Assembly (NCBI GenBank): GCA_964487045.1
Contig: CAZAOT010000001.1
Coordinates: 4,875-68,874, forward strand
DNA length: 64,000 nucleotides
Source: an uncultured Candidatus Saccharibacteria bacterium
Lineage (GTDB): Bacteria; Patescibacteriota; UBA1384; DTJR01
Reading direction: 5' to 3'
How positions within the stretch are numbered: the stretch's first letter is position 1; every line of letters begins with the position of its first letter. Below are positions 24,190 through 51,995 of the stretch, in pieces. The position numbers and the translations under genes were made by a program. The notes under the pieces are model-generated. The model was not told the origin of the DNA and made no database searches. It saw only the letters and a program-made list of their open reading frames with translations.

Positions 24190-24218
24190 TTGACTTGAAG
24201 CCGATATTATGTTATTTT
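24190..24218 (+). promoter_or_regulatory. putative promoter of GC-rich island 1
   Basis: TTGACT (24190-24195), 17 nt, then TATTTT (24213-24218). The -10 box is weak. The track ATG at 24209 lies inside this promoter. Confidence 0.35.
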
Positions 24219-24268
24219 TTTGTGTCAGGTTTTTTGCAGCCTGCATCACAGCAAGGGAGGGTTGTACC

Positions 24269-25675
24269 TTGAAACTTCGAGATTTGACTAGGGTTAGTAC
24301 GGCCGGTCAGCTTCATCATCTTCTGAGTAAGAAACGAACCCGCAATGAGAATGTCGAGCTGGGGGCTCTGCTCGAGAGTAATCTAGCGCTTGCCAGGCGA
24401 CTGGTCACCTTGGTGGCTGGCTCTGCTGACGCTAGTCTGGTCAAGATGTTCTCACCGATCTTCTGTCTGCTTTCGTCATCTTTGAGGGCGCAGATGATTG
24501 AGTCTTTCAAGCCGTTCAAGAGCAGAGAGTTTCTGTTCTTCGTCTCAAGTCTACCGGCCAAGGGGCTAAGGTACTTGATCAGGGCCCTCGATAAGATGTC
24601 GTCCGTTGACGACACGAGGTTTTGTCTCGGAAAGCTAGTCGTATCAGGCAATCCCGAATGGCCGGGTGTTATCGGCGAGGCTTTTTCGGACAAGGACCTT
24701 GACAGGTTGCGGGCGCGTGAGCCGATCTGTAGCGAACAATCAGAGGAATTCACTTCTCTACAGGCTATTACCTACATGATCGGTAGCTTGCTCTCAGCCA
24801 GCGTCATTCTTCTGCCGGTGTGTGGTCGGAATCCTCGACCCGAATACAACCTCGCTGGTTTCAAGCTGACAGAGATCAGGCCTCATGAGACATTGGTTAT
24901 GAATGGAGAGAAGTCTCAGAACCACTGGCTTCCTTGGGTATTTCAGACAGAGGAGGGAGTTGAGAAGGCGCTCCACTTACTCGAATTCCTCGTCGGCAGT
25001 CTGAGCCTCTGCGATCAGGGCAACGAGTTGCTCAACAGGATTGGTGACGATGCCGAAAGGATGCTGGTAGAGATCAGTGAGCGCTGGGAAGCAATCAAGA
25101 AAGGCGTGCATCGCTGGGTACTCCCAGATGGACAGATGAAGCTTCGGTTCGGAGGCGACTTTGTCTTCTGTGGCCTGATGGTGACAGAACTTCACCCCGG
25201 GAAGAAAGTACCCGAGATGACGGTCAGAATCGTACAGAATCGATTCGGTTACCTCAAGTTCAAGGATCGGCCTCTCGACGAGAATGGCCTTTTTAAGGAC
25301 ATGGACCTCGGTAAGCAGGTCGGACTGCTCGAACTTGGCATCAACCACAAGGTGGTCTGCTGGCTGGCTGATTACGCTTTGCGACCTTCAAACTACAAGC
25401 CAAAGAATGGTGAAGGCAAGAGTCTTGACCCGATCAAGGTCGCGTTTGGCGAAGGCAAGCTGCCTGCTGGGTTTCACCTTCCTGAGTATATGAATCTCCC
25501 GGACAAGATAAAGCAGAACGGCAAGCCTTACGAAGCCAGTGGCGATGCGAAGAAGCGCGCCGAAGCGCTGGGCTGGGCCGAGCCGACTGATGGTCAGACC
25601 TTTAGGATGTCGGGAGATCCTCTTAAGGAAGGCCTTGGCCTTCCGGAACCCCTCGACATCGTATATGATGTCTGA
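24269..25675 (+). CDS. orphan protein of GC-rich island 1
   Basis: About 468 aa from the TTG at 24269, preceded by GGGAGGG 7 nt upstream. G/C-ending codon bias unlike the flanks. No family recognised. Followed by a hairpin terminator. Confidence 0.7.
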   Translation: MKLRDLTRVSTAGQLHHLLSKKRTRNENVELGALLESNLALARRLVTLVAGSADASLVKMFSPIFCLLSSSLRAQMIESFKPFKSREFLFFVSSLPAKGLRYLIRALDKMSSVDDTRFCLGKLVVSGNPEWPGVIGEAFSDKDLDRLRAREPICSEQSEEFTSLQAITYMIGSLLSASVILLPVCGRNPRPEYNLAGFKLTEIRPHETLVMNGEKSQNHWLPWVFQTEEGVEKALHLLEFLVGSLSLCDQGNELLNRIGDDAERMLVEISERWEAIKKGVHRWVLPDGQMKLRFGGDFVFCGLMVTELHPGKKVPEMTVRIVQNRFGYLKFKDRPLDENGLFKDMDLGKQVGLLELGINHKVVCWLADYALRPSNYKPKNGEGKSLDPIKVAFGEGKLPAGFHLPEYMNLPDKIKQNGKPYEASGDAKKRAEALGWAEPTDGQTFRMSGDPLKEGLGLPEPLDIVYDV

Positions 25676-25690
25676 TATCTCTCTATCTCA

Positions 25691-25734
25691 AAGGGGCGCA
25701 CTGTCATCCGACAGGGCGCCCCTTCTCTTTTTTG
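25691..25734 (+). terminator. intrinsic terminator
   Basis: AAGGGGCGC (25691-25699) pairs with GCGCCCCTT (25716-25724), followed by CTCTTTTTT. Confidence 0.75.
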
Positions 25735-25742
25735 TAAAAAAA

Positions 25743-26318
25743 TTACAGACGAAAAACGCGAATTAGCTTTTCGCTGATTAACTCGCCACGTTCCAGTTTT
25801 TCCGGCAAGTATCGAAGTAAATAATTCCTAACTTCAGTCGAACTTTGGGTACCAAGGGGAATTGCAATTGGGGATTTGAAAAAACCAACTGGCTCGATAT
25901 ATAGAATTGATTTTTGCCCATGCTGGGCAATCCAAAATGACTTTAGCTCATAAAACGGAACATAATTTTCTCTTTGCAGCATTCCGCTCTCATCAATCGC
26001 AAATTCGTGAGTCTTAGGCTTCTCATGAGAAAGTTGGAAGGTAACGATGACTGCTAAAATGATTATTATTACTGGGAAAAAGTTACCGGTGTAGATCAAA
26101 ATCAGAGATAAAACCATCGAAACAAGCCCAACTACTAGTGACCAGTAAGGAGATCTTTCAAAAGTATAATAATCTGGTGCTCTCCAGCGCAATATTTTTT
26201 TGATATTACCAAGCTTGATCGGCCTTGGGGTCGTCTTTTTTTCTTCCGGCCTTTTGGAATCTTTTTTGGATTTTTGAGCCGGTTTCTTGGCTATTTTTTT
26301 GTCTTTTTCTTTGGCCAT
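25743..26318 (-). CDS. hypothetical membrane protein with Lys-rich N-terminus
   Basis: 191 aa, two central TM helices, AT-rich native composition. Confidence 0.65.
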   Translation of the reverse strand: MAKEKDKKIAKKPAQKSKKDSKRPEEKKTTPRPIKLGNIKKILRWRAPDYYTFERSPYWSLVVGLVSMVLSLILIYTGNFFPVIIIILAVIVTFQLSHEKPKTHEFAIDESGMLQRENYVPFYELKSFWIAQHGQKSILYIEPVGFFKSPIAIPLGTQSSTEVRNYLLRYLPEKLERGELISEKLIRVFRL

Positions 26319-26351
26319 TAACTTAATTATAGCACAGCGAGATTTTTTCGA

Positions 26352-26762
26352 TTAATCAATCGATTTTTTTATAGCCTCGGCGATTTTTGCTCTTTCTCCA
26401 GATGTAGTCTCTTTACCGGGCCAGAGTTTGAGGCCATCACCGGAAAAACGGGGCATAATGTGAAGATGAACATGTCCGACAACTTGCCCAGCGTCTTTGC
26501 CGTTATTTAGCCCTAGATTAAATCCGCTAGCTCCCACCGCCTCGTTCAAACTAGAGCCGATTTTTTGCGCTAGCTTCATCATCTCGCAAAGATATTTTTC
26601 TTCTACTTCTTCTAGAGAAGCAAAATGCTTCTGGGGAATTACAAGCGTGTGGCCATTATTTACCGGATTTATATCTAGAAAAGCCAAGACGTATTCATTT
26701 TCAAACACTTTGTCAGCCGGGATTTTTCCTTCTATAATTTGGCAAAAGATACAATTTTCCAT
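26352..26762 (-). CDS. HIT family (histidine triad) protein
   Basis: 136 aa with the HVHLHIMPR histidine triad. Confidence 0.9.
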   Translation of the reverse strand: MENCIFCQIIEGKIPADKVFENEYVLAFLDINPVNNGHTLVIPQKHFASLEEVEEKYLCEMMKLAQKIGSSLNEAVGASGFNLGLNNGKDAGQVVGHVHLHIMPRFSGDGLKLWPGKETTSGERAKIAEAIKKSID

Positions 26763-26764
26763 CG

Positions 26765-27217
26765 TTAAAATTTCACTAAATTTTTCTCGAGGTCCTGAAC
26801 AATTAGCTTCTTGCCCTTTGTAACTATTTTATACCCTTCTTTTTCAAGAAGCTTTTTTTGATTTTCTATTCCACCTGGGTATTTATCGTTTAATTCTCCA
26901 GAGCCTTTTAGCGTACGCCAGTAAGGGGCACCATCTTTTAATTCCTCGGAGGCGTTAGCGGCTATCCAAGTAAAGATTCCAGTTGTAAGCGGGCAAGCGA
27001 TCGCAGTTTTATGTTTTTTTGCGAAGTATTGTCTTATGAGAGCAACCGAGGCGAGTTTGCCTTTTGGAACTTTCTTCATTACTTCGTAAACTTCCTCGGG
27101 ACATGGGATGTACATTGTTTCTCCACCCCATTTTTCAGCTGCTTCTTTGTCTAATTTTACAATTTTAGGGAGGTCGTTTTTGGTTTTTAGCTTTTCTACC
27201 CATGACTTTTTAGCCAT
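26765..27217 (-). CDS. hypothetical protein (possibly MGMT/Atl-like DNA-binding domain lacking the Cys)
   Basis: 150 aa. APYWRTLKGSGEL loosely resembles the PCHRV region. Family assignment is tentative. Confidence 0.55.
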   Translation of the reverse strand: MAKKSWVEKLKTKNDLPKIVKLDKEAAEKWGGETMYIPCPEEVYEVMKKVPKGKLASVALIRQYFAKKHKTAIACPLTTGIFTWIAANASEELKDGAPYWRTLKGSGELNDKYPGGIENQKKLLEKEGYKIVTKGKKLIVQDLEKNLVKF

Positions 27218-27225
27218 ACTGCTCC

Positions 27226-27711
27226 TTAGAATTTAGGATTTTCTTTTAAACTATCGGCCCATCCACCAACTAGTCCGCTAAGGATAATTACAACAACCGC
27301 AACCAGTAGATGCCCTAGCATTATTTTACCGACCGACCTTTTTTCAGCTTTAGCTATGAAGTAGGTAAGAATTGAGATCAAAATAAGTCCAAATAGTACT
27401 GATAAAATTATCGCTTGGTTTATTTGCAAAAAGAAAAAGGGAAGGGCAAACAAAATTCCAACAGAAAATTTAGAGATAAAGGTGGAAATTGTTTCTTCCC
27501 ATTTTGATTTTTCGTTGTCCCGCTCGGCTTCATCAGCCATAAAAATTGCAAATGAGTCCGACAAGGCGTCGGTGATGGCGATTACGGCGATACCAGCGAC
27601 AATTACAGAAACTGAATGAGTTCCTTGGTTCAGGCCAATCATCATTCCAAGCGTCGTAATAATACCGCTTGTCAGGCCAAAGCCAAATCCTTTTCTAACT
27701 GCTGATTTCAT
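27226..27711 (-). CDS. VIT1/CCC1-like small membrane protein
   Basis: 161 aa, 4-5 TM segments (LTSGIITTLGMMIGL, DALSDSFAIFMADEA). Confidence 0.6.
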   Translation of the reverse strand: MKSAVRKGFGFGLTSGIITTLGMMIGLNQGTHSVSVIVAGIAVIAITDALSDSFAIFMADEAERDNEKSKWEETISTFISKFSVGILFALPFFFLQINQAIILSVLFGLILISILTYFIAKAEKRSVGKIMLGHLLVAVVVIILSGLVGGWADSLKENPKF

Positions 27712-27768
27712 AGTTTGATTTTACTCCTTAATCCAGTGTTTCGGCAAGGGTTATGTTAATTTTTCTTC

Positions 27769-27797
27769 TTGATTTGGCGCCTCGCTTGTACTATACT
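27769..27797 (+). promoter_or_regulatory. sigma70-type promoter of GC-rich island 2
   Basis: TTGATT (27769-27774), exactly 17 nt, then TATACT (27792-27797), about 70 nt upstream of the ATG at 27869. Confidence 0.6.
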
Positions 27798-27868
27798 CTG
27801 CGGATCTCAAGATTTCTCTTGAGTTGCGACGAAATAGTGAACATTGACATAGAAGGGAATGGTTACGA

Positions 27869-29638
27869 ATGCAAGAGCTGGTGCTGTTTGTTGCTGTAAT
27901 CGGCTATCTGATCGGGTCGATACCGATCGGCTATCTGATTGGCAAGAAGTTCGGCGTGAATCTTCTCGAAGAAGGGTCTAAGGCGATCGGCCGGACCAAC
28001 CTCGAGCGGGTTCTCGCGCCGATCATCGGCGCCAAGCGCGCCAAGCTCTGGGGTTATATCGGCGAGGCAGGCGACCAGCTCAAGGGACTCGTCCCAATTC
28101 TGATTGGTATGCTTCTGCTTCGTCTTGACCCCATCTCGCTCGCTGTCCTCGCTACTTCGCTCATTCTCGGCCACTGCTACTCTGCGTTTCTTTTCTTCAG
28201 GGGTGGCAAGGGAGTCGCGACGACGATGGGCATCGTGCTTGCTCTTTGCTGGTACATCGCTGTGCCATGCTACGTGTTCTGGTTTGCCGCCAAGAAAGCG
28301 CTCGAGACCAAGACGCAGGAGGCAACCGCACTCGCTTCGATTCGCGGAGGTCTTCTGGTTGGTGTTCTGGGAGTCATGGTCACGCACGACCTGGCCATGC
28401 AGATCTTCTTCGCCTTTGCTGCGCTTCACATCGTTTTTGCTCACCGCGAGAACCTGAAGCGCTACAGGCAGGAACAGCTGCAGAAGAAGCTTGAGAAAGC
28501 AAGCTTCCCGGACGATATGCCGACCGGTGTATTCATCACCGATGCGGCTACGAACAATCCTGAGACGGTCAAGCGGCTTCTGATGCAAAAGAAGAAGTTC
28601 GCCTGGCTCGTCAACCTCTTTCCGGCCCAGTTCGTCTGCGACGTGATTCTCCCCATCATCCCGATGAAGTACCTGAAGATGGGCGAGGTCATCCTCGAGA
28701 ATGATCTTGGGGCCAAGGTCAGAGTTGTGACCTGGGGCTACCCGGACATCCCAAGACGAATGATGGAGAACCCGGGCCGTACGATCTCGAGGCTACTTGA
28801 TCTTTGTTCATACGTCGAGTCGCTTGGTGCAGACGACATCTGCCTTGGCGCCAACACAGCCAGTGTCGGCGACAAGGGAGCAACGCTTCAGCAGTTTGCC
28901 CAGTCGATCACGAACGGCAATCGCCTAACCTGCGTCTATGCGGTTAAGGCTGCTCTCAAAGTGCTAGACACAATGCTAATCCCTCGAGGAACCGCTGTAG
29001 CAACTGTGGTTGGCAGTGGCGGCTCAGTAGGAGATGGCGTGTGTCAGCTTCTGCTCAAGGCCGGTATCGGACGCCTGTATTTGGTTGGAAGCACTCTTGG
29101 TAAACAGGCTGGTCAGGCAACTGAGCTCTCGAGGCGTTTTGGGGTTCCGGTTGAAGAACTGGGACTAATGGACGCCCTCTCGCGAAGTCATCTGGCCATC
29201 TTTGCCTCTAGTGGTACGGCCAGAGAGAACGCGCACAAGATCAATCCCGAGGCGCTTCCAGCAGGCTTGATTGTCGTTGACATGGAACGCCCGCGCGAGA
29301 TCTCAAAGATGCTTGCCGAGTATGTGTGGCTTCTGCCGAACGATGGTGGCATGGTTGCTATCGAAGGAACGGGCAAGGCTGGGACTGGCTTGCCTGAAGG
29401 CGTTTACTTCCCTTGTTTCAGCGAACTAGCCTTGCGCCTCTTCCGCGGAATCAGGACGAAGTGGTGCTATCCAGCTACTCTCGAGGAATTGAGGGAGGTT
29501 TGGGAAGCGGCTGAGGAGGAAGGCTTCTCTCTAGCTGGTCTGCGTCTTAATGAGCAGCCAGTTGAAGATCATGAGCTTGCTTTCCGTATCGAGCAAGCAG
29601 AGATGGCAAAAGCCTACAAACCCAGGAGGGTGACATGA
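27869..29638 (+). CDS. fusion protein: PlsY-like glycerol-3-phosphate acyltransferase + acyl-ACP-reductase-like NAD(P) domain
   Basis: 589 aa, GC-rich.
- Residues 1-200 are PlsY-like: YLIGSIPIGYLIGKKFG, GDQLKG, LGHCYSAFLFFRGGKGVATT, AHRENLKRY.
- Residues about 215-589 are collinear with cyanobacterial AAR recalled from memory: TNGN, VVGSGGSVG and YFPCFSE versus TTGN, VVGATGDIG and MFACFAE, which contains the catalytic Cys. Confidence 0.8.
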   Translation: MQELVLFVAVIGYLIGSIPIGYLIGKKFGVNLLEEGSKAIGRTNLERVLAPIIGAKRAKLWGYIGEAGDQLKGLVPILIGMLLLRLDPISLAVLATSLILGHCYSAFLFFRGGKGVATTMGIVLALCWYIAVPCYVFWFAAKKALETKTQEATALASIRGGLLVGVLGVMVTHDLAMQIFFAFAALHIVFAHRENLKRYRQEQLQKKLEKASFPDDMPTGVFITDAATNNPETVKRLLMQKKKFAWLVNLFPAQFVCDVILPIIPMKYLKMGEVILENDLGAKVRVVTWGYPDIPRRMMENPGRTISRLLDLCSYVESLGADDICLGANTASVGDKGATLQQFAQSITNGNRLTCVYAVKAALKVLDTMLIPRGTAVATVVGSGGSVGDGVCQLLLKAGIGRLYLVGSTLGKQAGQATELSRRFGVPVEELGLMDALSRSHLAIFASSGTARENAHKINPEALPAGLIVVDMERPREISKMLAEYVWLLPNDGGMVAIEGTGKAGTGLPEGVYFPCFSELALRLFRGIRTKWCYPATLEELREVWEAAEEEGFSLAGLRLNEQPVEDHELAFRIEQAEMAKAYKPRRVT

Positions 29639-30804
29639 ACAGTAGGGTGGCCGTGCTTGGAGCGGGCCAGTTTGGCTTTGCTCTTGCTTGCCGATTGGCT
29701 CAAGGCGGGATAAAGACGGTTCTGTGGGGCCGTAGTCCGCATATTCTCAGCGGTCCGCGGGCAGTCTCACAGCGGTTCAGTGGTGGATCGCCGCCCCTTG
29801 GGCTTCAAGTTACTGGCGGATCAGGTCTTCCCAGCCTGGATGACTTTGACCTGGTCTTTGTCGCCACTGATTCTTCTGGACTCGCTGAGCTAGTCCCGAT
29901 GATCGCCCAGAGTGATATTGGCGATACGCCGGTTCTTCTTGTCCAGAAGGGTCTTGTGAATGGTGTCTCTCCCGTGGAATTCGCTAGCGCCGCCGGACTT
30001 AACGCCGGTTCGTTTACCGGCGCGGCCTTCGCAAGTGACATCTATCTCGGCTCTGAGGCGATGATGATCGTCGCAGCCGAGGACGTTACCCTCTGCATTA
30101 CAGTGATGGAGCTGCTTAAGCCCCTTAAGTTCTGGATAACTGCATGTAGTGATCCAGACGCGATCTGCGCTGCCAACGTAGCGCGAACGATCACCTCGAT
30201 CGAGATGGGTATTGTCAGCGGCTTCGCGGACTACTTGCAGCGCCAATCAAAGTATGCACTGGTGCCGCATAGGTCGCCTGACTTTACTCCAACCGAGATC
30301 GCGGCGGCCACCGCTAGCATCCAGTACGAGTGGCGGGTTGTCTCAGCGATGCTTAGTCCGGTGATTAACTCCTTGCTCTATCCAGAAGTAGTCTCGGATG
30401 ATGTTTCGATCGTGCGCAACATCAATCGCGAGCGCATTCTCAGGGTCCTTTCCGCTGACAACTACCTCTGCAGCGGGATGATACTCGACCGTAACGACAG
30501 GGGAGGAGATTCTCGGGTGACTCTGGGTCTTCCTCTCGCCACACCGGTCTCGCGCAACTGGCGGTTTGGCTATGCGCTTGGCTGCTGGCGTTATGTCCCG
30601 GATGCCATAAGGGCGGTTGCTGACCTTGGAGTGATCCAGGGGCAGCAGAACGCTCTTGATCTATACAAGCGGTTCGGTGCGAGCGCCCCGCCGTTTCTCA
30701 CCTCCCTTGGCCGAATCTTGACTGAAGTGTCAAAGGTCGAGGAGGAGATCCAGGTCATTCGCGATCGTCGCGATGCCTGGTATGAAAAGTACGCTTCTAG
30801 CTGA
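29635..30804 (+). CDS. divergent GpsA-like NAD(P)H-dependent glycerol-3-phosphate dehydrogenase homolog
   Basis: 389 aa, GC-rich. VAVLGAGQFGFALACRLAQGG...VLWGR aligns with the GpsA N-terminus, and further blocks are collinear (VLLVQKGL; FTGAAFA). ATGA overlap with the upstream fusion gene. Confidence 0.65.
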   Translation: MNSRVAVLGAGQFGFALACRLAQGGIKTVLWGRSPHILSGPRAVSQRFSGGSPPLGLQVTGGSGLPSLDDFDLVFVATDSSGLAELVPMIAQSDIGDTPVLLVQKGLVNGVSPVEFASAAGLNAGSFTGAAFASDIYLGSEAMMIVAAEDVTLCITVMELLKPLKFWITACSDPDAICAANVARTITSIEMGIVSGFADYLQRQSKYALVPHRSPDFTPTEIAAATASIQYEWRVVSAMLSPVINSLLYPEVVSDDVSIVRNINRERILRVLSADNYLCSGMILDRNDRGGDSRVTLGLPLATPVSRNWRFGYALGCWRYVPDAIRAVADLGVIQGQQNALDLYKRFGASAPPFLTSLGRILTEVSKVEEEIQVIRDRRDAWYEKYASS

Positions 30805-30822
30805 GCTATGCTCGGTCTTACA

Positions 30823-30860
30823 CGGGCTCCCGGAAGTTTTCCGGGAGCCCGTTTCTTTTT
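30823..30860 (+). terminator. intrinsic terminator (shared with convergent gene)
   Basis: CGGGCTCCCGG (30823-30833) pairs with CCGGGAGCCCG (30841-30851), followed by TTTCTTTTTT. Confidence 0.8.
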
Positions 30861-31729
30861 TAGTACAAATCTAACTTTGGTTTTTTCTTTTGATAATTTG
30901 CGAATGCTTTTTTCCAACTTTTTGACCAGTAACCGGGCTTCTTGCGGTAATCTTCAAACAGAAATAATCCGCAGTACGGACAAAGTTTCTCCAATTGTTC
31001 GCGCATCGAATCTTTATCCTCTGGCAGAGTTTTTCTTCCTAAATTGAAGCCCATAATTCGATCAATTGATCCAGCATTCGGGCAAGCATAATAGCCGTGC
31101 TTGGTAAGTGATTTGCCGCACTGGTTTAGAACTAGGCAGCCATTTCTAAAATCTGCATCCTTATATCGTTTGCGATCTCGAGGTGCAGCGTTGATAGAGA
31201 TAAAGTAGCCGTGTATTTGAGAGGTCTTTTTATTGTTTTGGATAATTATGCCTTCTGGCAACTTTTTAATCTCATCTTGAACTTTTTTACCGACCCCATT
31301 GGTGATGATTTTAATTTCTGATTTTGGTGAAAAATCGCGTTTATATTTTAAAAGCAAGCGAAACATCCCCATAGTTTCTGGTTCGAGCGTTGATTCTCCG
31401 CCATAAACCGTTATCCTTCCCCATTTCTTACCCGCTTTTTTCGACTCGGAAATAAATTTTTTCACTTGCTCAATCGTCATTTTCTCGCGCGATGGAGCTT
31501 GGCGACACATCTGAGAGCAGTCGTAACATTTGAGGTTGCAATGATAGGTGGTGATTAAATCTACTTTATTAGGGTCGCTTCTGTAAGCATAACCAAGTAT
31601 CTTGGTCACTCTAGGATTGATTCGAAAACGGTGCCAATTATCTTTTAAGAAAAAATAGCTCCAGCGAGCAGCTTTTTTCAGTGGTTTTATTCTATATACT
31701 ATCTTCCGAACAAAAAAGTTTTCTGTCAC
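30860..31729 (-). CDS. radical SAM protein
   Basis: 289 aa with CNLKCYDC (CxxxCxxC). AT-rich native composition. Confidence 0.75.
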   Translation of the reverse strand: MTENFFVRKIVYRIKPLKKAARWSYFFLKDNWHRFRINPRVTKILGYAYRSDPNKVDLITTYHCNLKCYDCSQMCRQAPSREKMTIEQVKKFISESKKAGKKWGRITVYGGESTLEPETMGMFRLLLKYKRDFSPKSEIKIITNGVGKKVQDEIKKLPEGIIIQNNKKTSQIHGYFISINAAPRDRKRYKDADFRNGCLVLNQCGKSLTKHGYYACPNAGSIDRIMGFNLGRKTLPEDKDSMREQLEKLCPYCGLFLFEDYRKKPGYWSKSWKKAFANYQKKKPKLDLY

Positions 31730-31734
31730 GTGGA

Positions 31735-32259
31735 CTATTTTATTTCAATTGATTCGATCTTATCACCGATTTTGATTTTCTTAACGATGTCCATGCCTGA
31801 ACTGACCTTGCCAAAATATGTATACTGCTTGTTTAGGAATGAGCAGTCGACTGTGCAGATGAAGAATTGGTCGGCATTTGAAACTTTAATATCGCCGGCC
31901 CTGGCAATACCTACCGCTCCCTCTGAAAAATTGCTGTCAGATAACTCAGTTGCTTGATCGCCACCGCCGGTGCCGTCTCCCTTTGGGTCACCTCCTTGTA
32001 CGACCCAATCCTCGACGCGGTGAAAAGTTCTCCCAGCATACTCACCGGCAGTAACTTTCTTGATGAAATTATCGACTGTGTTTGGTGCCGACTTAGCGTC
32101 GAGGTCGATTGTAAAACTTCCAGCATTTGTTTTGATAGTAGCCTTCTTATTAATCACATTATTCACGATATTTTCCTTCGATGTCTGCTTGCTAGATGCG
32201 CAAGCGGTTAATGTTAGAGCGAGCCCAAAAACAAAAAAAGCGATAAATATTTTTCTCAT
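31735..32259 (-). CDS. cyclophilin-type peptidyl-prolyl isomerase, lipoprotein
   Basis: FHRVEDWVVQGGDP cyclophilin core. Lipobox LTLTAC after the MRKIFIAFFVFGLA signal peptide (start taken at the second Met, 32259). Confidence 0.85.
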   Translation of the reverse strand: MRKIFIAFFVFGLALTLTACASSKQTSKENIVNNVINKKATIKTNAGSFTIDLDAKSAPNTVDNFIKKVTAGEYAGRTFHRVEDWVVQGGDPKGDGTGGGDQATELSDSNFSEGAVGIARAGDIKVSNADQFFICTVDCSFLNKQYTYFGKVSSGMDIVKKIKIGDKIESIEIK

Positions 32260-32301
32260 AAAGACAATGTAAAACAACTTAGCCGTTTTGGCAAATCAAT
32301 G

Positions 32302-34147: not shown

Positions 34148-34155
34148 ATAAGTAT

Positions 34156-34195: not shown

Positions 34196-34196
34196 C

Positions 34197-34221
34197 AAAA
34201 AGAACCATCTTGCAATGGTTC
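34197..34221 (-). terminator. putative intrinsic terminator (minus strand)
   Basis: GAACCAT (34202-34208) pairs with ATGGTTC (34215-34221), with a T-run on the minus strand (plus-strand A-run 34197-34201). Confidence 0.4.
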
Positions 34222-42293: not shown

Positions 42294-42437
42294 ATTATCA
42301 CCCACCTTTCTTACTAAATTGTAGCAAAAATTCTGATAAGTAAATACCTTTTAAAATTTTGATTATTATGCTTGCTTTAGCGTGGTTTATCTGGTAAAAA
42401 ATGCATATCACGACCATGTTCGAAGGATGGTGAGCAG

Positions 42438-42635: not shown

Positions 42636-42717
42636 ACCACGAGCGCAGTCGTATCCAGAGTCTCAAGCTGGTCTTGTACCGGCGCGAGACTCTTCTTCTT
42701 TAATGATTGATTTTCCG

Positions 42718-43677: not shown

Positions 43678-43706
43678 TTGATTGTATGGGTATATTCTAG
43701 TATTAT
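43678..43706 (+). promoter_or_regulatory. sigma70-type promoter of GC-rich island 6
   Basis: TTGATT (43678-43683), exactly 17 nt, then TATTAT (43701-43706). Confidence 0.6.
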
Positions 43707-43750
43707 GACGTGACGAGAATTCGCGTTCATTACAGAGGAGAGAGTGCCAT

Positions 43751-44179
43751 ATGTGTAAGAAACTGATATTTGCTAGTACGCTGGCACCGAAACTCTACTG
43801 CTTGTGCACACCGAGTGAGGAGTTGCTGGAGGTCTTGCTTGAGCGTGCCAAGGACGATGAGTGTCGCGCCGAGCCACTTATGGTGGCCGAACAGGAGATC
43901 GAGTTCGGGCCAGCCAACTATCTTTATGACGAGGCCCGCATGCGCGTCTGTGAGGCTAGTGCAGGCATGGCTACGGTCATGATCCAGGTCGGTAGTCATG
44001 CTGATGGAATTCGATCAGTGCTTGTGCCTGTTGGCGAGAAGGAGGGTGATGACGAAGCCCTGCCTGAAGGGGCTTTGATGCCAGGTATCGGTTGCCCGAT
44101 GGAATGTCTGCTGGGCCTGGGGCTGTTTTGTCTCGTGATCAAAGGCGGCATTTGCGCCGTCCATTATCTGCTCGGCTAA
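43751..44179 (+). CDS. orphan Cys-rich protein with C-terminal TM helix (GC-rich island 6)
   Basis: 142 aa. RBS GAGGAGAGAG. C-terminus GIGCPMECLLGLGLFCLVIKGGICAVHYLLG. Confidence 0.6.
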   Translation: MCKKLIFASTLAPKLYCLCTPSEELLEVLLERAKDDECRAEPLMVAEQEIEFGPANYLYDEARMRVCEASAGMATVMIQVGSHADGIRSVLVPVGEKEGDDEALPEGALMPGIGCPMECLLGLGLFCLVIKGGICAVHYLLG

Positions 44180-44200
44180 TGGCCGGGAGGGGAGTACAGC

Positions 44201-44512
44201 ATGTCTTTGTTTGGCAAAAAGGGAGAGCCGAAGCCGCCTAAGGTGAGGAAGGAGCGCAAGCCGCGCGCTCCGATCACCAAGGAGCGAGTCTTTGAAGGGT
44301 TGTTGGCTTTTGGCCGCAACCTGTTGCTGGTAGTGACCGTCGTAGGCATCTTGGCGCTCTCGGCGCTCGTCTACGTCCTGTTCCAGAAGATCGGCGGCGG
44401 CAGTAGCGACCCAGCAACGAAGAACCTGATTCTCGTCGCGACTGCGATGACGGCCGGAGGCGGCTTTTTCACGCTCTGGCTCGGCCGCACCTGGGGCATC
44501 ATCCCGTACTAG
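44201..44512 (+). CDS. orphan two-TM protein with Lys/Arg-rich N-terminus (GC-rich island 6)
   Basis: 103 aa. RBS GGGAGGGGAG lies 6 nt upstream of the ATG. Followed by a strong terminator. Confidence 0.65.
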   Translation: MSLFGKKGEPKPPKVRKERKPRAPITKERVFEGLLAFGRNLLLVVTVVGILALSALVYVLFQKIGGGSSDPATKNLILVATAMTAGGGFFTLWLGRTWGIIPY

Positions 44513-44535
44513 GGCTGATGCCTGCGAGCATCTTT

Positions 44536-44576
44536 GGCGGTTTGTCCGGTCACCCGGACAAACCGCCTTCTTTTTT
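44536..44576 (+). terminator. intrinsic terminator
   Basis: GGCGGTTTGTCCGG (44536-44549), loop TCAC, CCGGACAAACCGCC (44554-44567), then TTCTTTTTT. Confidence 0.85.
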
Positions 44577-47524: not shown

Positions 47525-47575
47525 TTCAGGATTGAGTGCCCCTTATGGGGCCCAAAGGACATTGAGGTGATGGCG

Positions 47576-48730
47576 ATGCGAATCGGCATGTTCACTTTGA
47601 CTTATGGAAGGTCTAACGGCGTGGCCGTCTCCGTCGCCAATCTGAGCCGCGCGCTTCGCGAAGCCGGCCATGAAGTTCATATCTTCGGGCCAAGCGGTGT
47701 GGCGGATACAGACGAATTCTACCATCCGTTCGTGACGGTGCGATTTCCCCAGGCTCCGGACTATCCGGTGCCAATACCGAACTTCCTGCGTGCTCTCAAG
47801 ATAGCGCGTCGGTACAATCTTAAGCTTATGCACACTCACCATCCTTGGCTGCTCGGCAGTGATGCGGTGAGGGTGGCGCGCGAGCTGGAGGTGCCGGTAG
47901 TTTCCACGGTGCACACTCAGTATGATTTCTACTCCGAGCTTTTCCCGTGGATTCCGAGCAAATGGAAGCGCAAAGCGCTGCATTGGGTGCTCAGGCGTCA
48001 CCTCTGCAGTGTCGATCTGGTGACGACGCCGGGCATTGGTTCCAAGGCGCGCCTGGATGACATGCAGCTGACTACGCCGGTTCGTCTCGTCACCAACGGC
48101 ACCGACCTGTCGCTCTTCGGGTATGGCGGCGCCAACGAAATCAGACGCCAGCTCAGAATTCCGGAAGGCGCCCAGGTCTTCGGCTATGTTGGCCGGTTCG
48201 ATCCCGAAAAAGATCTCGGCACCCTGATCGATGCGGCGGCTAAAGTGTTCAAATGGCATCCGCGAGCCGTGCTGCTCATGGTCGGCGACGGTAAAGAGCG
48301 CGAATCGCTCGAGTGGAAATCCAAACCGCTCGGCAACCGAGTCATCTTCACCGGCCGAATTGCCCACGAGCAAATCGCGCCCTACTACAGCGCGATGGAT
48401 ATCTTCGTCACGCCGAGTAGGTTCGAGGTTCAGCCGATGACCATCGCCGAAGCGTTTGCCAGCGGTTTGCCGGTCGTTGCTTTGGATGTGCCTGGCAGCG
48501 AGATGGTCCATCACGGCTACAACGGCCTGCTCGTGGATCCAGCCCAACCGGTAAGCGCCCTGGCTCGAGGAGTCAGTCAGATCTTTAGCGACCCATTCCG
48601 ACATCTGACGCTACAGGGCCACGCCAGAGAGTCGGCGCGGCAGTACGAAACCGCCGAAGCTTTGTCACAGATGCTCAGTGCCTACCAAGACGCCGGCTAC
48701 TTCTGCCGCACTCGTCAGTCGTCCGTCTAA
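47576..48730 (+). CDS. GT4 glycosyltransferase, GC-rich copy (diacylglycerol glycosyltransferase-like branch)
   Basis: About 384 aa from MRIGMFTLTY (GAGGTG RBS; ATG at 47570 is an alternative start). Motifs NGVAVS, GHEVHIFGP, TVHTQYDFY, VDLVTTPG, EVQPMTIAEA. Resembles alMGS/CpoA-type GT4 (from memory). Confidence 0.8.
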   Translation: MRIGMFTLTYGRSNGVAVSVANLSRALREAGHEVHIFGPSGVADTDEFYHPFVTVRFPQAPDYPVPIPNFLRALKIARRYNLKLMHTHHPWLLGSDAVRVARELEVPVVSTVHTQYDFYSELFPWIPSKWKRKALHWVLRRHLCSVDLVTTPGIGSKARLDDMQLTTPVRLVTNGTDLSLFGYGGANEIRRQLRIPEGAQVFGYVGRFDPEKDLGTLIDAAAKVFKWHPRAVLLMVGDGKERESLEWKSKPLGNRVIFTGRIAHEQIAPYYSAMDIFVTPSRFEVQPMTIAEAFASGLPVVALDVPGSEMVHHGYNGLLVDPAQPVSALARGVSQIFSDPFRHLTLQGHARESARQYETAEALSQMLSAYQDAGYFCRTRQSSV

Positions 48731-48746
48731 CAAGTAATGGTTCCGT

Positions 48747-48778
48747 GGCCGGAGGTTCGCCTCCGGCCTGTTTTTTTT
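48747..48778 (+). terminator. intrinsic terminator
   Basis: GGCCGGAGG (48747-48755), loop TTCG, CCTCCGGCC (48760-48768), then TGTTTTTTTT. Confidence 0.85.
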
Positions 48779-48803
48779 GAAAAAAGGTTCTACAATTAGG
48801 GTG

Positions 48804-49958
48804 ATGAAGATCGCAATTTTTACTAATACCTATTGGCCAACTGTAAATGGCGTAGCTGTTTCGGCGACTAATTTGCGCGAAGGACTCATTCAGCTTGGAC
48901 ATGAGGTTTTTATCTTTGCGCCAGACGACGAAGATTTGAAGAAGTTGAAAGAACAGGCTAACGTTTATCGCTATCCATCTTTCAATATTAAAGAAATTGC
49001 TGATTATGAATTGGCGCTTCCGTCCTTGAAGATTAATGAAGTTTTAGATAAAAATTCCTTTGATATCGTGCACAGCGAACATCCGCTCTGGATAGGAAAG
49101 TGGGGGATGAATTATGCCAAAAAAACCAATACCCCGATTATTACAACCGTTCATACTCAGTACGATCTCTACGCCAAATTAATACCGCTACCCCAGGGAA
49201 TTTTGGTACCAATTTTACATAAAAATCTTAATCGATATTTAAATAATGTTGATTTAGTGACGACTCCAGGGGAGGGATCGAAGCAAAGGCTGATTGAGCA
49301 AGGAGTGAAGACGCCGATCAGGGTGGTTTCAAACGCGACCGATCTCAGTAGGTACTGGAAGGCCAAAGGAGATAAGGTACGCCGTGAGCTGACTAACAAT
49401 AATGAGAAATTGATTGGGTTTGTCGGGCGGCTATCGAAGGAAAAAGACGTTTCTGTCTTACTTGATGCAATGAATCTTATTTTAAATAAAATGCCTGATA
49501 GTAAGCTCATTTTGATTGGTGATGGTCCGGATAGAAAAGAGCTCGAGGAAAAAGCCAAAACTATTTCAAACAAAATTGTTTTTCTTGGCAAAATTGATCA
49601 TAAACAAATCCCTGATTATTATGCCTCCTTTGATATTTTTCTCTCGGCTAGCCAGTCGGAGGTTCAGCCAATGACTTTTGCCGAAGCGATGGCAACCGGT
49701 ACGCCGATTGTTGTTTTTAATGTTGCTGGTTGTAATGATATGGTGAAAAATCGCGAGAATGGACTATTGATTGACCCTAAAAAGGGCGCCCAGGGATTGG
49801 CAGATGCGGTGACAAAGATTTTAGTAAACGAAAAAGAGTTAAAAAAATTAAGCTCTCAGGCTAGAAAATGGGCCAGCCGCTATGATCTGATGACGGCGAC
49901 CAAAGATATGGTTGAAGCCTATGAGCAGGCAATCAAGATTCACTCAAACAAGAACTAA
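48804..49958 (+). CDS. GT4 glycosyltransferase, AT-rich copy (same subfamily as 47576-48730)
   Basis: About 384 aa from MKIAIFTNTY. Shares NGVAVS, GHEVFIFAP, TVHTQYDLY, VDLVTTPG and EVQPMTFAEA with the upstream GC-rich gene. Confidence 0.85.
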   Translation: MKIAIFTNTYWPTVNGVAVSATNLREGLIQLGHEVFIFAPDDEDLKKLKEQANVYRYPSFNIKEIADYELALPSLKINEVLDKNSFDIVHSEHPLWIGKWGMNYAKKTNTPIITTVHTQYDLYAKLIPLPQGILVPILHKNLNRYLNNVDLVTTPGEGSKQRLIEQGVKTPIRVVSNATDLSRYWKAKGDKVRRELTNNNEKLIGFVGRLSKEKDVSVLLDAMNLILNKMPDSKLILIGDGPDRKELEEKAKTISNKIVFLGKIDHKQIPDYYASFDIFLSASQSEVQPMTFAEAMATGTPIVVFNVAGCNDMVKNRENGLLIDPKKGAQGLADAVTKILVNEKELKKLSSQARKWASRYDLMTATKDMVEAYEQAIKIHSNKN

Positions 49959-51079
49959 ATACCTAGCCCAATTGCTGTTTTGGCTTCCTTTAGAGTTTCC
50001 TGCGCATCGGGGGCGACTTTTGAAGCGCCGTCCGAGAGAATTTTTTTGAGGTTTTCTTTATCGGCAATCAGTTCGTTAAATTTTTCTCTAACTGGCTTTA
50101 ACTCGGCGATGACTGCTTCTGCCAAGGCCTCTTTGAATTCGCCATAGGTTTTGCCTTCAAATTCTTTTTCAATTTCGCTAATTTCCCGGCCGGTAACCCC
50201 GGAAAAAATATTAAGTAGATTGGTGATAGCAGGTTTATCTTCTCCAGCTTTGATTTCATTTCCAGAATCTGTGACCGCTTTTTTAATCTTGGTTCTAATC
50301 GTCTTATCATCATCAGTTATAGCAATGTAATTTGCGGGTGATGGGGCTGATTTTGACATTTTCTTTTTAGGATCATCAAGTCCCATAATTCTAGCGGTTT
50401 CTTTGCGGATTAAAGGTTCTGGAACGGTAAAGATTTGCCCATATTTATTATTAATTCTTTGGGCAATATCTCGGGTTATCTCAATATGTTGTTTTTGATC
50501 TTCGCCGACCGGAACTTGATCGGTTTGGTAAAGCAAGATATCAGCGGCCATGAGCGCTGGGTAGTCAAAAAGGCCAACTGAACTTATATCGTAGGATTTA
50601 CGTTCGGATTCTTCTAGGATATTTTTTGCAAGGTCTATTCTCTTTTCATTATTATCTTGTAATTCTTTTAGCTGTTCGGGTGAATTTATTTTATCGACTA
50701 ATCTTTTTATGACATTATCTGAAATTCTGTCTCTTATTTCACTCGATTTTTCCTTAAATTGGGTCATGCGGTTAAGCTCACCCATATAGGTATGGCAATT
50801 TAAAATCCAAGCTAGTTCGGAGTGCTCGGGACGGTCAGACTGAACAAAAATTGTTGATTTATTGGGGTCGATGCCAGAAGCAATATAGAGTGCGGCGACT
50901 TCTAGTGTCTTTTCTTTTAAAACTTTTGGATCTTGGGGAACGGTAATTGCATGCAGATCGACGATGCAAAAGATGCACTCGGCTTCATCTTGAACCTTGG
51001 CCCATTGCTTAAGTGCCCCTAAATAATTTCCTAAATGTAGGTTGCCCGACGGCTGTACGCCGGAAAAGATTTTTTTCAT
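49955..51079 (-). CDS. trpS: tryptophan--tRNA ligase
   Basis: 374 aa. SGVQPSGNLHLGNYLG (HIGH-type) and KKMSKS motifs. Confidence 0.9.
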   Translation of the reverse strand: MKKIFSGVQPSGNLHLGNYLGALKQWAKVQDEAECIFCIVDLHAITVPQDPKVLKEKTLEVAALYIASGIDPNKSTIFVQSDRPEHSELAWILNCHTYMGELNRMTQFKEKSSEIRDRISDNVIKRLVDKINSPEQLKELQDNNEKRIDLAKNILEESERKSYDISSVGLFDYPALMAADILLYQTDQVPVGEDQKQHIEITRDIAQRINNKYGQIFTVPEPLIRKETARIMGLDDPKKKMSKSAPSPANYIAITDDDKTIRTKIKKAVTDSGNEIKAGEDKPAITNLLNIFSGVTGREISEIEKEFEGKTYGEFKEALAEAVIAELKPVREKFNELIADKENLKKILSDGASKVAPDAQETLKEAKTAIGLGI

Positions 51080-51244
51080 TTTTATAGATCCTTCGACAAG
51101 CTCAGGATTAAAATGCCTTTTTAATTTTCTATTAAAACATTTTCAATTTAACAAAATTAAGGGGTTACCACAACTATTTGCTTGAAAATCGTCTGAAGGG
51201 TGTTAATTTTAATATAGATTCGGGGACCGAAGGGTAGGTGATAG

Positions 51245-51538
51245 ATGAAACTAGCATTTGTCCGCACTGAGAAGGGCTGGCAGCGAGGTTACTTCAGCGG
51301 AAGGATGCTGGTCGTAGGAGACAGCAAGCCAATCTCTGAAGTAGAGGCCAGAAGGCAGCTCAGCTTGCCAGGGGAAACGATCGTCAAGGTGATCGTTTCA
51401 GACCAAGTCTTTCGCGCCTATGACGTACTGATGAGACGGGACGATATGAAACCGGAGCAGGTCCAAATGGGTCTGCTGCCAAAGCCTGACAAACCCCGAA
51501 GAGGGTGCTTGATGTGGTTTCTTCCGCGCCATCATTGA
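51245..51538 (+). CDS. orphan 97-aa protein (GC-rich island 8)
   Basis: RBS AAGGGTAGGTGA, then the ATG. GC-rich codons. Followed by a hairpin terminator. Confidence 0.55.
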   Translation: MKLAFVRTEKGWQRGYFSGRMLVVGDSKPISEVEARRQLSLPGETIVKVIVSDQVFRAYDVLMRRDDMKPEQVQMGLLPKPDKPRRGCLMWFLPRHH

Positions 51539-51551
51539 TCCCGAATCTTAC

Positions 51552-51592
51552 AAGGGACGCTCCGCCTTGTGCGGTACGTCCCTTTTCCTTTT
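51552..51592 (+). terminator. intrinsic terminator between convergent island-8 genes
   Basis: AAGGGACG (51552-51559) pairs with CGTCCCTT (51577-51584), followed by TTCCTTTT. Confidence 0.6.
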
Positions 51593-51648
51593 AAAAGTAA
51601 AACGCCCCCCGGACCGTTGGCTCGGGGCATGAGGTTGGCTGGCCGGTG

Positions 51649-51924
51649 CTACTTCTTCTTTGGCCACGCCGGGCAGAGGACGAAGGCAAGCAAGGTGAAT
51701 CCGAGCGCGATGGGCGTTCCGAGGAACGCCCAGGCGACCCCGCTCCATCCCCAGATGGCTCCGGCTGTGACGCACCACCCGATCCATCCGGCGATCCCGA
51801 TGACAAGGGTCCAGAGAATCTTGTCGCCGGCATGGCGGATCCTGGGACAACTTAGGCCGATGAAGACAGCGGCCAAGAGCAATCCCCCTCCAACCGAAAT
51901 CAATGCGGGTACCATCGCACCCAT
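51649..51924 (-). CDS. orphan Trp-rich three-TM protein (GC-rich island 8)
   Basis: 91 aa (MGAMVPALISVGGGLLLAAVFIGL...WIGWCVTAGAIWGWSGVAWAFLG...KKK); the start may be the second Met at 51915. Overlapping ORFs in other frames look like shadows. Confidence 0.6.
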   Translation of the reverse strand: MGAMVPALISVGGGLLLAAVFIGLSCPRIRHAGDKILWTLVIGIAGWIGWCVTAGAIWGWSGVAWAFLGTPIALGFTLLAFVLCPAWPKKK

Positions 51925-51966
51925 CCTTTCTGTTCTGTTGCCAGATTGTCAAAACGCGATCTGGAT

Positions 51967-51995
51967 ATACTAACTCAAGGACAGCTATATTGCAA
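51967..51995 (-). promoter_or_regulatory. sigma70-type promoter for the 51924-51649 gene
   Basis: On the minus strand: TTGCAA (51995-51990), exactly 17 nt, then TAGTAT (51972-51967). Confidence 0.55.

Follow-up and report, generated by a model that had tools for sequence, protein, structure and literature searches.

Genes whose composition departs from that of their surroundings are routinely taken for recent horizontal acquisitions, and this includes the islands found in bacteria of the candidate phyla radiation (CPR; Patescibacteria). Horizontally transferred genes are said to make up the 'class III' genes of Escherichia coli distinguished by Medigue et al. 1991, and accessory pools are reportedly, according to Rocha and Danchin 2002, usually AT-richer than the core. 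Other described systems are the phage 'morons', reportedly the subject of Juhala et al. 2000 and Hendrix et al. 2000, the chromosomal hot-spots of gene flux between core genes that Oliveira et al. 2017 are said to have reported, and GC-biased gene conversion, for which Galtier and Duret 2007 reportedly discuss mouse Fxy at the pseudoautosomal boundary. Islands predicted from composition account for up to 13% of the genome in Patescibacteria, where most transfers stay inside the phylum (PMC12455944). Here we analyse a 64-kb window (the whole stretch of DNA studied, from contig CAZAOT010000001.1) in which eight GC-rich blocks, called islands 1 to 8 below, are interspersed in AT-rich chromosomal DNA.

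The best-supported description of these blocks is that they are clade-specific, GC-rich accessory cassettes in conserved slots, some inherited and some replaced. They resemble the atypical genomic islands of Patescibacteria (PMC12455944) and the class III genes of E. coli in being gene-sized blocks with deviant usage, with many orphans and with some members linked to tRNA or recombinase genes; their share of the DNA, 14% of the window, is also like that reported for Patescibacteria (up to 13%), where transfers are likewise mostly within the phylum. Unlike usual genomic islands, these units are GC-richer than the core, so that the polarity is reversed, each forms one transcription unit placed singly among other genes, at least two of them are kept in position and composition across lineages near saturation, and no donor was found. 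Islands of this extent have already been reported in Patescibacteria; the interest here lies in a composition that persists, in a GC polarity that is reversed and in the missing donor.

Composition and architecture of the islands

Composition was determined with a 300-nt profile and a two-state hidden Markov model (HMM) over the 64-kb window. The HMM recovered eight GC-rich segments with a GC content of 0.53-0.61, against a background of 0.38-0.42:

24236-25722: island 1, GC 0.533
27901-30851: island 2, GC 0.565
37229-38049: island 3, GC 0.546
40194-40892: island 4, GC 0.567
42409-42692: island 5, GC 0.609
43779-44567: island 6, GC 0.593
47534-48770: island 7, GC 0.592
51221-51926: island 8, GC 0.581

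The original prediction, made by reading the letters, had proposed eight sharply bounded GC-rich intervals with G/C-ending codons, and the HMM agrees with it to a few tens of bases; GC and GC at third codon positions (GC3) both step up clearly in the islands, and the three 60-nt hand counts given with the prediction (39/60, 33/60 and 11/60) are all correct. The islands sum to 8,974 nt, which is 14% of the window and 32% of positions 24190-51995. A single additional HMM segment, 34456-34666, includes tRNA-Ser (34570-34659).

The two gene classes do not overlap in GC3: the 48 native genes have a mean of 0.392 ± 0.043 with a maximum of 0.50, and the 13 island open reading frames (ORFs) span 0.58-0.81. 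The lowest island gene exceeds the native mean by 4.4 standard deviations in GC3 and by 5.3 in total GC. Boundaries are sharp, with a GC content typically of 0.25-0.40 in the 100 nt outside and of 0.53-0.66 in the 100 nt inside. The noncoding DNA within islands (leaders, spacers and 3′ untranslated regions) has a GC content of 0.52-0.74, apart from one 15-nt spacer at 0.47, compared with 0.36 for native intergenic DNA; thus the shift is not a matter of codon choice alone. At 4-fold degenerate sites it is about strand-symmetric. In dinucleotide signature most islands are nearer to other islands than to native DNA, and codon tables are similar across most of them. Island genes prefer AAG, GAG, ATC, CTC/CTG and CGC; their proteins are richer in Ala, Gly, Pro and Arg and poorer in Lys, Asn and Ile, and both codon and amino-acid usage fit a genome of ∼57% GC.

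Each island is one self-contained predicted unit consisting of an AT-rich promoter region, a ribosome-binding site (RBS), one or more GC-rich ORFs and a terminator made of a hairpin and a T-run. Putative promoters, which are consensus matches of the sigma-70 type only, lie in the AT-rich DNA directly upstream of islands 1, 2, 3 and 6, and a Shine-Dalgarno sequence stands ahead of the first ORF in the islands. At the other end the GC-rich block stops at the final base of the hairpin, with the T-run next. All of the top seven hairpin and T-run sites of the whole 64 kb are within islands: six close the units of islands 3, 2, 6, 1, 7 and 8, and the seventh is the hairpin region of island 3 read on the opposite strand. 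The hairpins of islands 4 and 5 are weaker, so the predicted closure of most intervals by an unusually strong GC hairpin terminator is borne out in six of eight. In two related loci (L085 and L086), too, the strongest hairpin of the locus is the one that closes the island 2 operon.

Counted over the window plus five related loci, 11 of the 15 GC-rich units run antisense to the two co-directional genes that flank them, as compared with five of 60 native genes; the count includes orthologous units from several lineages, which are hence not independent. Such placement would account for a need of strong terminators. The native genes between which the intervals lie (epimerase, VIT1-like, tRNA, valS and trpS genes) are all intact, in line with the original prediction.

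No upstream motif common to all islands was found; only islands 2 and 3 share one, TTGACATAG, which occurs exactly twice in the window, 17 nt before the start codon in island 2 and 12 nt upstream of the first ORF in island 3, and which may be a candidate regulatory site common to the two.

This organization, in which a promoter (here a consensus match), an ORF and a factor-independent terminator form a block of composition unlike that of its neighbours, is like that of phage morons, as is insertion between genes that are adjacent in relatives, shown for a glycosyltransferase pair between trpS and valS (see below). Unlike those of morons, the neighbours are cellular (epimerase, HIT, VIT1, PPIase, valS and trpS), no relatives were found in PHROGs or viral contigs, and most slots are occupied in all relatives. 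Integron cassettes are tandem and promoterless, with attC hairpins that carry RYYYAAC/GTTRRRY cores, and lie near an IntI tyrosine integrase. We rejected an integron array, since the units here are dispersed and have promoters of their own, and their hairpins, which are perfect GC stems with a T-run behind them, lack attC cores; no integrase was found among the ORFs scanned, which are part of those in the window.

The islands in related genomes

At least four other lineages carry GC-rich counterparts of islands 1 and 2 in synteny. In L085 the gene order is that of the window: GT2, DUF2304, GT2, epimerase, a 453-aa gene, a 192-aa gene, HIT, VIT1, the PlsY-fusion gene, the GpsA-like gene, a 324-aa gene and PPIase. 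The 453-aa, PlsY-fusion, GpsA-like and 324-aa genes have a GC content of 0.55-0.61 and the others, except one 42-aa ORF, of 0.35-0.48. The same GC-rich pattern is seen in L086, L168, L170-172 and L177, a contig that carries the cassette only. Syntenic GC-rich orthologues of island 1 are found in L168, L170-172 and L085, and orthologues of island 2 in L086, L168, L085 and L177; L086 and L168 have an identical island 2 leader and were treated as one organism. Between the window and these lineages most native neighbours share 60-79% identity, and individual proteins compare with those of the window as follows:

Island 1 protein: 57% identity in L168/L086, 35% in L170, 26% in L085
PlsY-fusion: 62% in L168/L086, not available in L170, 46% in L085
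GpsA-like protein: 26% in L168/L086, not available in L170, 29% in L085
Adjacent native 191-aa gene: 79% in L168/L086, 76% in L170, 67% in L085

The ranks of identity agree between island 1 and the adjacent 191-aa gene, which indicates vertical descent together with much faster protein evolution; for PPIase the values are 87% and 68%, against 62% and 46% for the PlsY-fusion. At conserved residues, identity over pooled 4-fold sites is 0.36-0.37, with 0.27 expected from family-specific composition. This corresponds to an estimate of roughly 1.6 substitutions per 4-fold site between lineages, so that silent sites would be near saturation. Synteny and GC-richness across such silent sites imply that islands 1 and 2 pre-date the divergence of those lineages.

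The GC content of 4-fold sites (GC4) in the window is 0.57 in islands and 0.40 in native genes, an excess of +0.17; in relatives the islands have 0.66-0.68, and native genes reach 0.58-0.59 in two related lineages (native genes of L085, L086, L168 and L173). The fraction of G-ending codons for Lys, Glu and Gln is 0.34-0.39 in native and 0.69-0.76 in island genes of three lineages. The silent-site composition of the core is thus labile in the clade, with the two-fold codon preference fixed.

Other slots show turnover. In L173, whose trpS and valS are 75% identical to those of the window, the slot between the homologue of W_52025 and trpS holds 136-aa and 141-aa genes with a GC content of 0.55-0.59, and a 348-aa gene with a GC content of 0.60 occupies, on the opposite strand, the slot after valS-TPR. 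Slots 6 and 8 are occupied in L173, L002 and L001 by GC-rich genes unrelated to those of the window; in L087 the corresponding genes are only mildly raised in GC (0.49 for the slot 8 gene). Extra GC-rich genes are present in island 2 of L085 and L086. GC-rich genes account for six of the 25-26 genes called in L173, and there are several each in L002, L168 and L175; conserved slots with GC-rich content were seen in L085, L086, L168, L170-172, L173, L175, L002 and L001. The GC-rich gene class is clade-wide and not confined to the 28-kb region, and the exceptional density claimed in the original prediction is undercut by how common similar GC-rich, gene-sized units are in related genomes. Variable content at conserved positions between genes, such as upstream of trpS and downstream of valS-TPR, is like that of gene-flux hot-spots; unlike at hot-spots, all incoming content is of one narrow GC-rich composition, and islands 1 and 2 are inherited.

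Island 7 provides an internal control in the form of two side-by-side GT4 glycosyltransferase paralogues, one GC-rich and one AT-rich:

47534-48770, plus strand: island 7, with a GT4 glycosyltransferase gene at 47573-48730 (385 aa) and its own terminator (-20.2 kcal/mol)
48777-49958, plus strand: GT4 paralogue of native composition, GC 0.41, GC3 0.42, directly downstream of island 7

The two proteins are 38% identical (E = 1e-93), and the AT-rich copy begins 46 nt downstream on the same strand; despite equal strand and position the neighbouring genes differ by 0.18 in GC. The best match of the island 7 protein anywhere is its AT-rich neighbour, and its best database relative is 36% identical. 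It has Pfam GT4 domains and a match, below the cut-off, to the NCBIfam MGlcDAG synthase model, and would thus resemble a monoglucosyl-diacylglycerol synthase. In the relatives that have both trpS and valS (L002, L001, L087 and L173) these genes are adjacent or one small AT-rich gene apart; the GT4 pair in the window is therefore an insertion, and among the relatives compared it is found between trpS and valS only in the window. In terms of presence and absence, then, an acquired island fits islands 6, 7 and 8, for which relatives have different or no content, and does not fit islands 1 and 2.

Donors were sought in large protein databases for islands 1, 2 and 7. The PlsY-fusion has only five relatives among 5.8 billion protein clusters and the island 1 protein only six among 1.84 billion representatives; those with retrieved context are all in a syntenic CPR setting except L177. 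No relative of the island 7 GT4 exceeds 36% identity. The comparison with possible donor lineages that the original prediction had called for thus returned none for islands 1, 2 and 7 in 1.8-5.8 billion sequences. Islands 3-6 and 8 have no relatives in 2.4 Mb (176 loci) of related sequence. A viral or plasmid reservoir was considered and rejected, as four viral scans and two plasmid tblastn searches gave only PlsY-domain matches of ∼30% identity; PHROGs and PADLOC gave no matches that would indicate a prophage or a defence island.

The closest relative of island 2 is L177 (Logan SRR30681658 contig, positions 1-3124), seen in three samples, which contains a promoter, plsY, the reductase-like gene, the gpsA-like gene and a terminator only. 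The contig begins and ends with the same 24 nt, which belong to the loop of the terminator hairpin; when the ends are joined, one coherent hairpin results, followed by the T-run and the promoter. No such overlap of ends is present in nine other Logan contigs. L177 may stand for a circle or a tandem copy, or assembly may have broken off at the hairpin.

On the clade-specific reading the cassettes, though foreign in composition, did not arrive recently from another phylum. The signal that is commonly read as recent transfer marks, in at least two cases here, genes older than the split of several lineages and without a detectable donor, and composition-based calls of horizontal transfer in Patescibacteria may count a resident gene class.

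Explanations of the GC-rich composition

The cassettes may be part of a GC-rich accessory gene pool specific to the clade, from which they would be inserted, and occasionally replaced, at a few permissive slots, with strong terminators that would insulate antisense units from their neighbours; renewal from the pool, possibly together with class-specific codon selection, would keep GC high while the core genome drifts. Such clade-internal renewal is the reason we favour for the persistence of the GC-rich composition, tentatively and with somewhat less than even confidence. Several observations weigh against it. No reservoir of such cassettes was found; the sole candidate, L177, is ambiguous, and its overlap of 24 nt is not the k-1 expected from an assembler and lies inside a hairpin. 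Islands 3, 5, 6 and 8 are without relatives in the 176 fetched loci or the family libraries. The divergence ranks of islands 1 and 2 track those of their neighbours, their silent sites are as diverged as native ones, and nothing shows a recent replacement of either; if both are strictly vertical, their composition is beyond what pool renewal can account for and calls for a maintaining force specific to the gene. The 4-fold contrast is small in two lineages (0.58-0.59 versus 0.66-0.68), and the large contrast in Lys, Glu and Gln codons is compatible also with class-specific codon selection. The dependence among the antisense counts given above belongs here as well.

The main rival to pool renewal, possible if rather doubtful, is intrinsic maintenance: the genes would be lineage-specific and vertically inherited, and a force particular to their class would hold them to GC-rich codon or base usage. 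For example, a separate translational or mRNA regime, in which G/C-ending Lys, Glu and Gln codons suit a minimal tRNA set poorly and the GC-rich transcripts are stabler, would give condition-dependent expression. Orthologues that are still GC-rich after ∼1.6 substitutions per silent site speak for it, and so do the codon-specific nature of the steadiest contrast (Lys, Glu and Gln) while native 4-fold GC drifts from 0.40 to 0.59, the best match of the GC-rich GT4 to an AT-rich neighbour, the native composition of the chaperonins, by which the GC-rich class is not the class of high expression, and the exact TTGACATAG placed directly ahead of the RBS in both island 2 and island 3. Codon selection is insufficient alone, given the GC-rich noncoding leaders, spacers and 3′ untranslated regions; per-site selection so strong is unexpected on weakly conserved, fast-evolving genes, and the unrelated genes in slots 6 and 8 of relatives are left unexplained. 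A bolder reading, in which we have similarly limited confidence, is that the genome and its clade hold two stable gene classes, with the terminator-insulated, mostly antisense units GC-rich beyond silent-site saturation and no external source. If so, an undescribed mechanism is implied, for which a codon-based separate regime of translation or expression is one candidate, and the copying and re-insertion of hairpin-bounded cassettes via circular or tandem intermediates, at which L177 hints, another. An actively maintained composition would make the locus a compact natural system for studying what sets bacterial base composition, be it selection, biased conversion or gene flux.

Eight independent and fairly recent transfers from GC-rich donors, as yet un-ameliorated, are improbable as an account of the whole set. 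The atypical composition, the usage expected of a ∼57% GC genome, the promoter and terminator of each unit, the positions of islands 3 and 6 beside tRNA genes and of island 4 in an integrative element, the absence of relatives of islands 3-6 and 8 from related loci and that of the island 7 pair from relatives would all be as expected. Synteny and GC-richness in at least four other lineages refute such transfers for islands 1 and 2; moreover, no donor exists for islands 1, 2 and 7 in 5.8 billion clusters and 1.84 billion representatives, the narrow GC band and similar signatures of all eight are unlike what diverse donors would leave, and GC-rich units are common in relatives. Thus the part of the original prediction that read the units as foreign imports fails by synteny for islands 1 and 2 and may hold for islands 4 and 7 and for the four orphans (islands 3, 5, 6 and 8). 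One or a few ancient transfers into the ancestor of the clade, with amelioration incomplete and the islands as a passive relic, are likewise hard to credit. Descent from a common source is consistent with islands that are shared, GC-rich everywhere and of one compositional class, and the window's island GC4 of 0.57, below the 0.66-0.68 of relatives, looks as if it partly tracked the background; by a rough two-state estimate, though, about three-quarters of the initial excess would be lost per lineage at ∼1.6 substitutions per 4-fold site, and the present excess of +0.17 would need an impossible starting GC4 above 1. Such a relic also leaves the unrelated GC-rich genes of slots 6 and 8 unexplained. 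A local process, either hot-spots of GC-biased gene conversion or head-on replication-transcription mutagenesis, that raises both GC and the substitution rate is very unlikely. High GC does coincide with accelerated protein evolution, most units are antisense to their neighbours, and the 4-fold shift is roughly strand-symmetric; the sharp rise in GC3 with faster amino-acid evolution is also like that at eukaryotic conversion hot-spots such as mouse Fxy. The effect here is, unlike at those hot-spots, gene-specific and not positional, in a bacterium and with no known structural boundary: boundaries are sharp to tens of bases, the AT-rich flanks have no GC gradient, an AT-rich GT4 lies 46 nt downstream of a GC-rich one on the same strand, and the antisense native genes at 35701-36828 and 41289-41828 are AT-rich. 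More unlikely again is relaxed constraint, under which the neutral equilibrium would be GC-rich, with conserved genes held AT-rich while fast genes drift. Native 4-fold GC has already reached 0.58-0.59 in two lineages, cassette genes are fast-evolving and their noncoding parts are GC-rich, as this would have it. The native gene at 20161-22164 is only 25% identical to its L085 counterpart and is AT-rich in both (GC3 0.36 and 0.44), the ∼400 nt of noncoding DNA between convergent 3′ ends at 36829-37228 have a GC content of 0.37-0.40, and native intergenic DNA, at 0.36, is no closer to such an equilibrium. Finally, the chance that reads of a GC-rich organism were joined chimerically in assembly or binning, an idea raised by the compositional contrast alone, is negligible. 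Window positions 24289-34597 recur at 99.99-100% identity in four Logan assemblies from as many sequencing runs, with one base difference in all, and a fifth Logan contig (L167) covers TPR-valS-island 7-GT4-trpS; the junctions around islands 1, 2 and 7, which the original prediction wanted examined for chimeras, are thus reproduced by five independently assembled contigs and are not chimeras, and related genomes from other projects show the same GC alternation.

Simpler single causes were also tried and rejected. GC-rich islands in AT-rich thermophiles are often structural RNAs. Here, Rfam at the gathering threshold gives three tRNAs only, islands 3 and 8 give no meaningful match at E ≤ 1, and island ORFs have a GC3 well above the GC of second codon positions (GC2), RBSs and several Pfam domains. 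Orientation is excluded by the same-strand AT-rich GT4 and by other antisense native genes that are AT-rich, fast evolution by the AT-rich native gene at 20161-22164 with its 25% identity, and a high-expression codon class by GroEL and GroES, which are of native composition in relatives. Location in the membrane fails as a cause because the enrichment is weak: by a crude hydropathy test, membrane proteins make up 20 of 32 proteins in the GC-rich class versus 41 of 99 (p = 0.04).

Gene content and neighbouring features

To judge from trpS and valS, which are nearest to those of metagenome-assembled genomes of Berkelbacteria, WS2 and other Patescibacteria, the host is an ultra-small, Berkelbacteria-like CPR (Patescibacteria) bacterium. 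Cassette content consists of glycerolipid- and glycolipid-enzyme-like genes, many small membrane proteins and orphans without a family match. The units other than islands 4 and 7 are as follows:

24190-25722, plus strand: island 1 unit, with a promoter-like site at 24190-24218, an ORF at 24209-25675 (488 aa, GC3 0.61) and a terminator that ends at 25722 (-26.5 kcal/mol)
27769-30852, plus strand: island 2 operon, with an AT-rich conserved promoter/leader at 27769-27868 and a terminator at 30822-30852
27869-29638, plus strand: island 2, fusion of PlsY (PF02660) and an acyl-ACP-reductase-like domain (PDB 6jzq), 589 aa
29635-30804, plus strand: island 2, GpsA-like dehydrogenase (PF01210, 31.7 bits), 389 aa
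37229-38153, minus strand: island 3 unit, with a promoter-like site at 38153-38125, the TTGACATAG box at 38097-38089 and a terminator at 37264-37231
37943-38077 (44 aa), 37706-37927 (73 aa) and 37271-37423 (50 aa), minus strand: island 3, small membrane-protein ORFs with predicted transmembrane (TM) segments
42409-42692, plus strand: island 5 unit, with a 65-aa basic ORF at 42438-42635 and a terminal hairpin (-24.9 kcal/mol) followed by a T-rich run
43678-44567, plus strand: island 6 unit beside tRNA-Ser(UGA), with a promoter-like site at 43678-43706 and a terminator that ends at 44567 (-28.7 kcal/mol)
43751-44179 (142 aa, C-terminal TM, GC3 0.61) and 44201-44512 (103 aa, two TM, GC3 0.81), plus strand: island 6 ORFs
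51221-51926, both strands: island 8, with convergent ORFs at 51245-51538 (plus, 97 aa) and 51649-51924 (minus, 91 aa, three TM) and hairpin and T-run sites between them

The 488-aa protein of island 1 belongs to a lineage-restricted family and has no match in Pfam or NCBIfam; its predicted structure (pLDDT 75) matches generic helical-repeat folds only.

The promoter and ∼65-nt leader of island 2 (within 27760-27868) are AT-rich and conserved in four lineages; the leader holds a -10 box and a hairpin changed on both sides of the stem between lineages, and GC-richness begins at the coding region and not at the start of transcription. The PlsY domain scores 105.3 bits with PF02660 (cut-off 24.1) and 111.7 bits with NCBIfam TIGR00023, below the cut-off of 137.2, and is by these scores a divergent member of the family. 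The second domain of the fusion, of ∼360 aa, matches the acyl-ACP reductase with E = 7e-9. The two are fused in the window, L085 and L086 and are separate, overlapping ORFs in L177 (L177:167-1959), and only three relatives of the full-length fusion, including L168, are present in public data. Always downstream of this module is the divergent GpsA-like gene, whose product has an N-terminal NAD-binding domain above the Pfam cut-off of 23.1; no C-terminal catalytic domain of GpsA was detected in the window protein, and only a faint one in L086 and L177, and every NCBIfam match is far below its cut-off. The set of PlsY, reductase-like and GpsA-like proteins is, as predicted from these matches, an unusual glycerolipid module for a CPR bacterium. 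CPR bacteria are thought to rely on hosts for lipids, and a fast-evolving, separately regulated envelope module would bear on their interaction with hosts as episymbionts.

The terminator of island 3 is the strongest in the window (-34.5 kcal/mol). Between the small ORFs of this island, a stretch of 282 nt at 37424-37705 (GC 0.52) has no convincing ORF or clear codon periodicity, and may represent a small RNA, a gene in decay or an ORF that escaped recognition; no Rfam family matches island 3 above threshold. The 65-aa protein of island 5 has no exact match in the public collection, which makes its coding status the least certain of the eight. Both ORFs of island 6 are annotated as genes in the NCBI record.

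Island 4 is the cargo of an integrated element:

38301-41208: integrated element of 2.9 kb at tRNA-Arg(GCG), with 22-nt exact direct repeats at 38301-38322 and 41187-41208
40194-40893, plus strand: island 4, with an ORF from 40208 or 40226 to 40846 (212 or 206 aa), GC3 0.70, and a hairpin at 40870-40893

The repeat is a duplicated 3′ end of the tRNA-Arg gene, and the element encodes a large serine recombinase, in which Pfam recognises the domains Resolvase (E = 7.8e-22), Recombinase (E = 6.4e-14) and Zn_ribbon_recom (E = 1.2e-6). The recombinase gene is of native AT-rich composition, with a GC3 of 0.37 against 0.70 for the cargo. It is flanked by inverted repeats of ∼100 nt (38316-38415 and 39817-39916), and a second pair (39910-40009 and 40965-41064) flanks the cassette; both pairs are 98%-complementary. 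The two repeat pairs meet at CTGGTAC, which reads GTACCAG on the other strand; GTACCAG is the core of the tRNA end and is found again at 41058-41064 and 41202-41208. The nested element looks like two segments that may be invertible or serially integrated, and if the first inverted, an identical recombinase gene would re-form on the opposite strand. In its three recombinase domains, the 22-nt tRNA-Arg repeat and the small cargo the element is like large-serine-recombinase elements at tRNA genes; it is unlike them in that the recombinase gene and the cargo each lie inside ∼100-nt inverted repeats meeting at GTACCAG, and in the combination of a GC-rich cargo with an AT-rich recombinase. The island 4 ORF has no match in Pfam, NCBIfam, PADLOC or PHROGs, and no viral or plasmid relative of the island was found. 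As the original prediction said, this unit at 40.2 kb, with its serine recombinase and duplicated tRNA-Arg end, is the only one with a visible link to a mobile element: islands 3 and 6 lie beside tRNA genes and lack flanking repeats, and none of a recombinase, a tRNA target or direct repeats was found at islands 1, 2, 5, 7 and 8.

A further observation concerns tRNA-Ser(GCU), where the ∼110 nt upstream of the gene are also GC-rich by the HMM (within 34456-34666). A 33-nt imperfect inverted repeat (34508-34540 and 34566-34598) pairs this upstream stretch with the 3′ part of the tRNA gene, and the stretch may be a tRNA fragment left by an old integration.

Downstream of the islands, adjacent ORFs of 1967 and 1487 aa within 52712-63063 stand out in that GC2 (0.48) exceeds the GC of first codon positions (0.43-0.44) and GC3 (0.35). 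They probably encode giant surface proteins, and partial homologues are encoded in L002 and L175. The ORF for TrpRS (49955-51079) is 374 aa long in the window, compared with 326-335 aa in most close relatives, and is matched by Pfam in two stretches, which suggests that the TrpRS of the window carries an insertion or an N-terminal extension.

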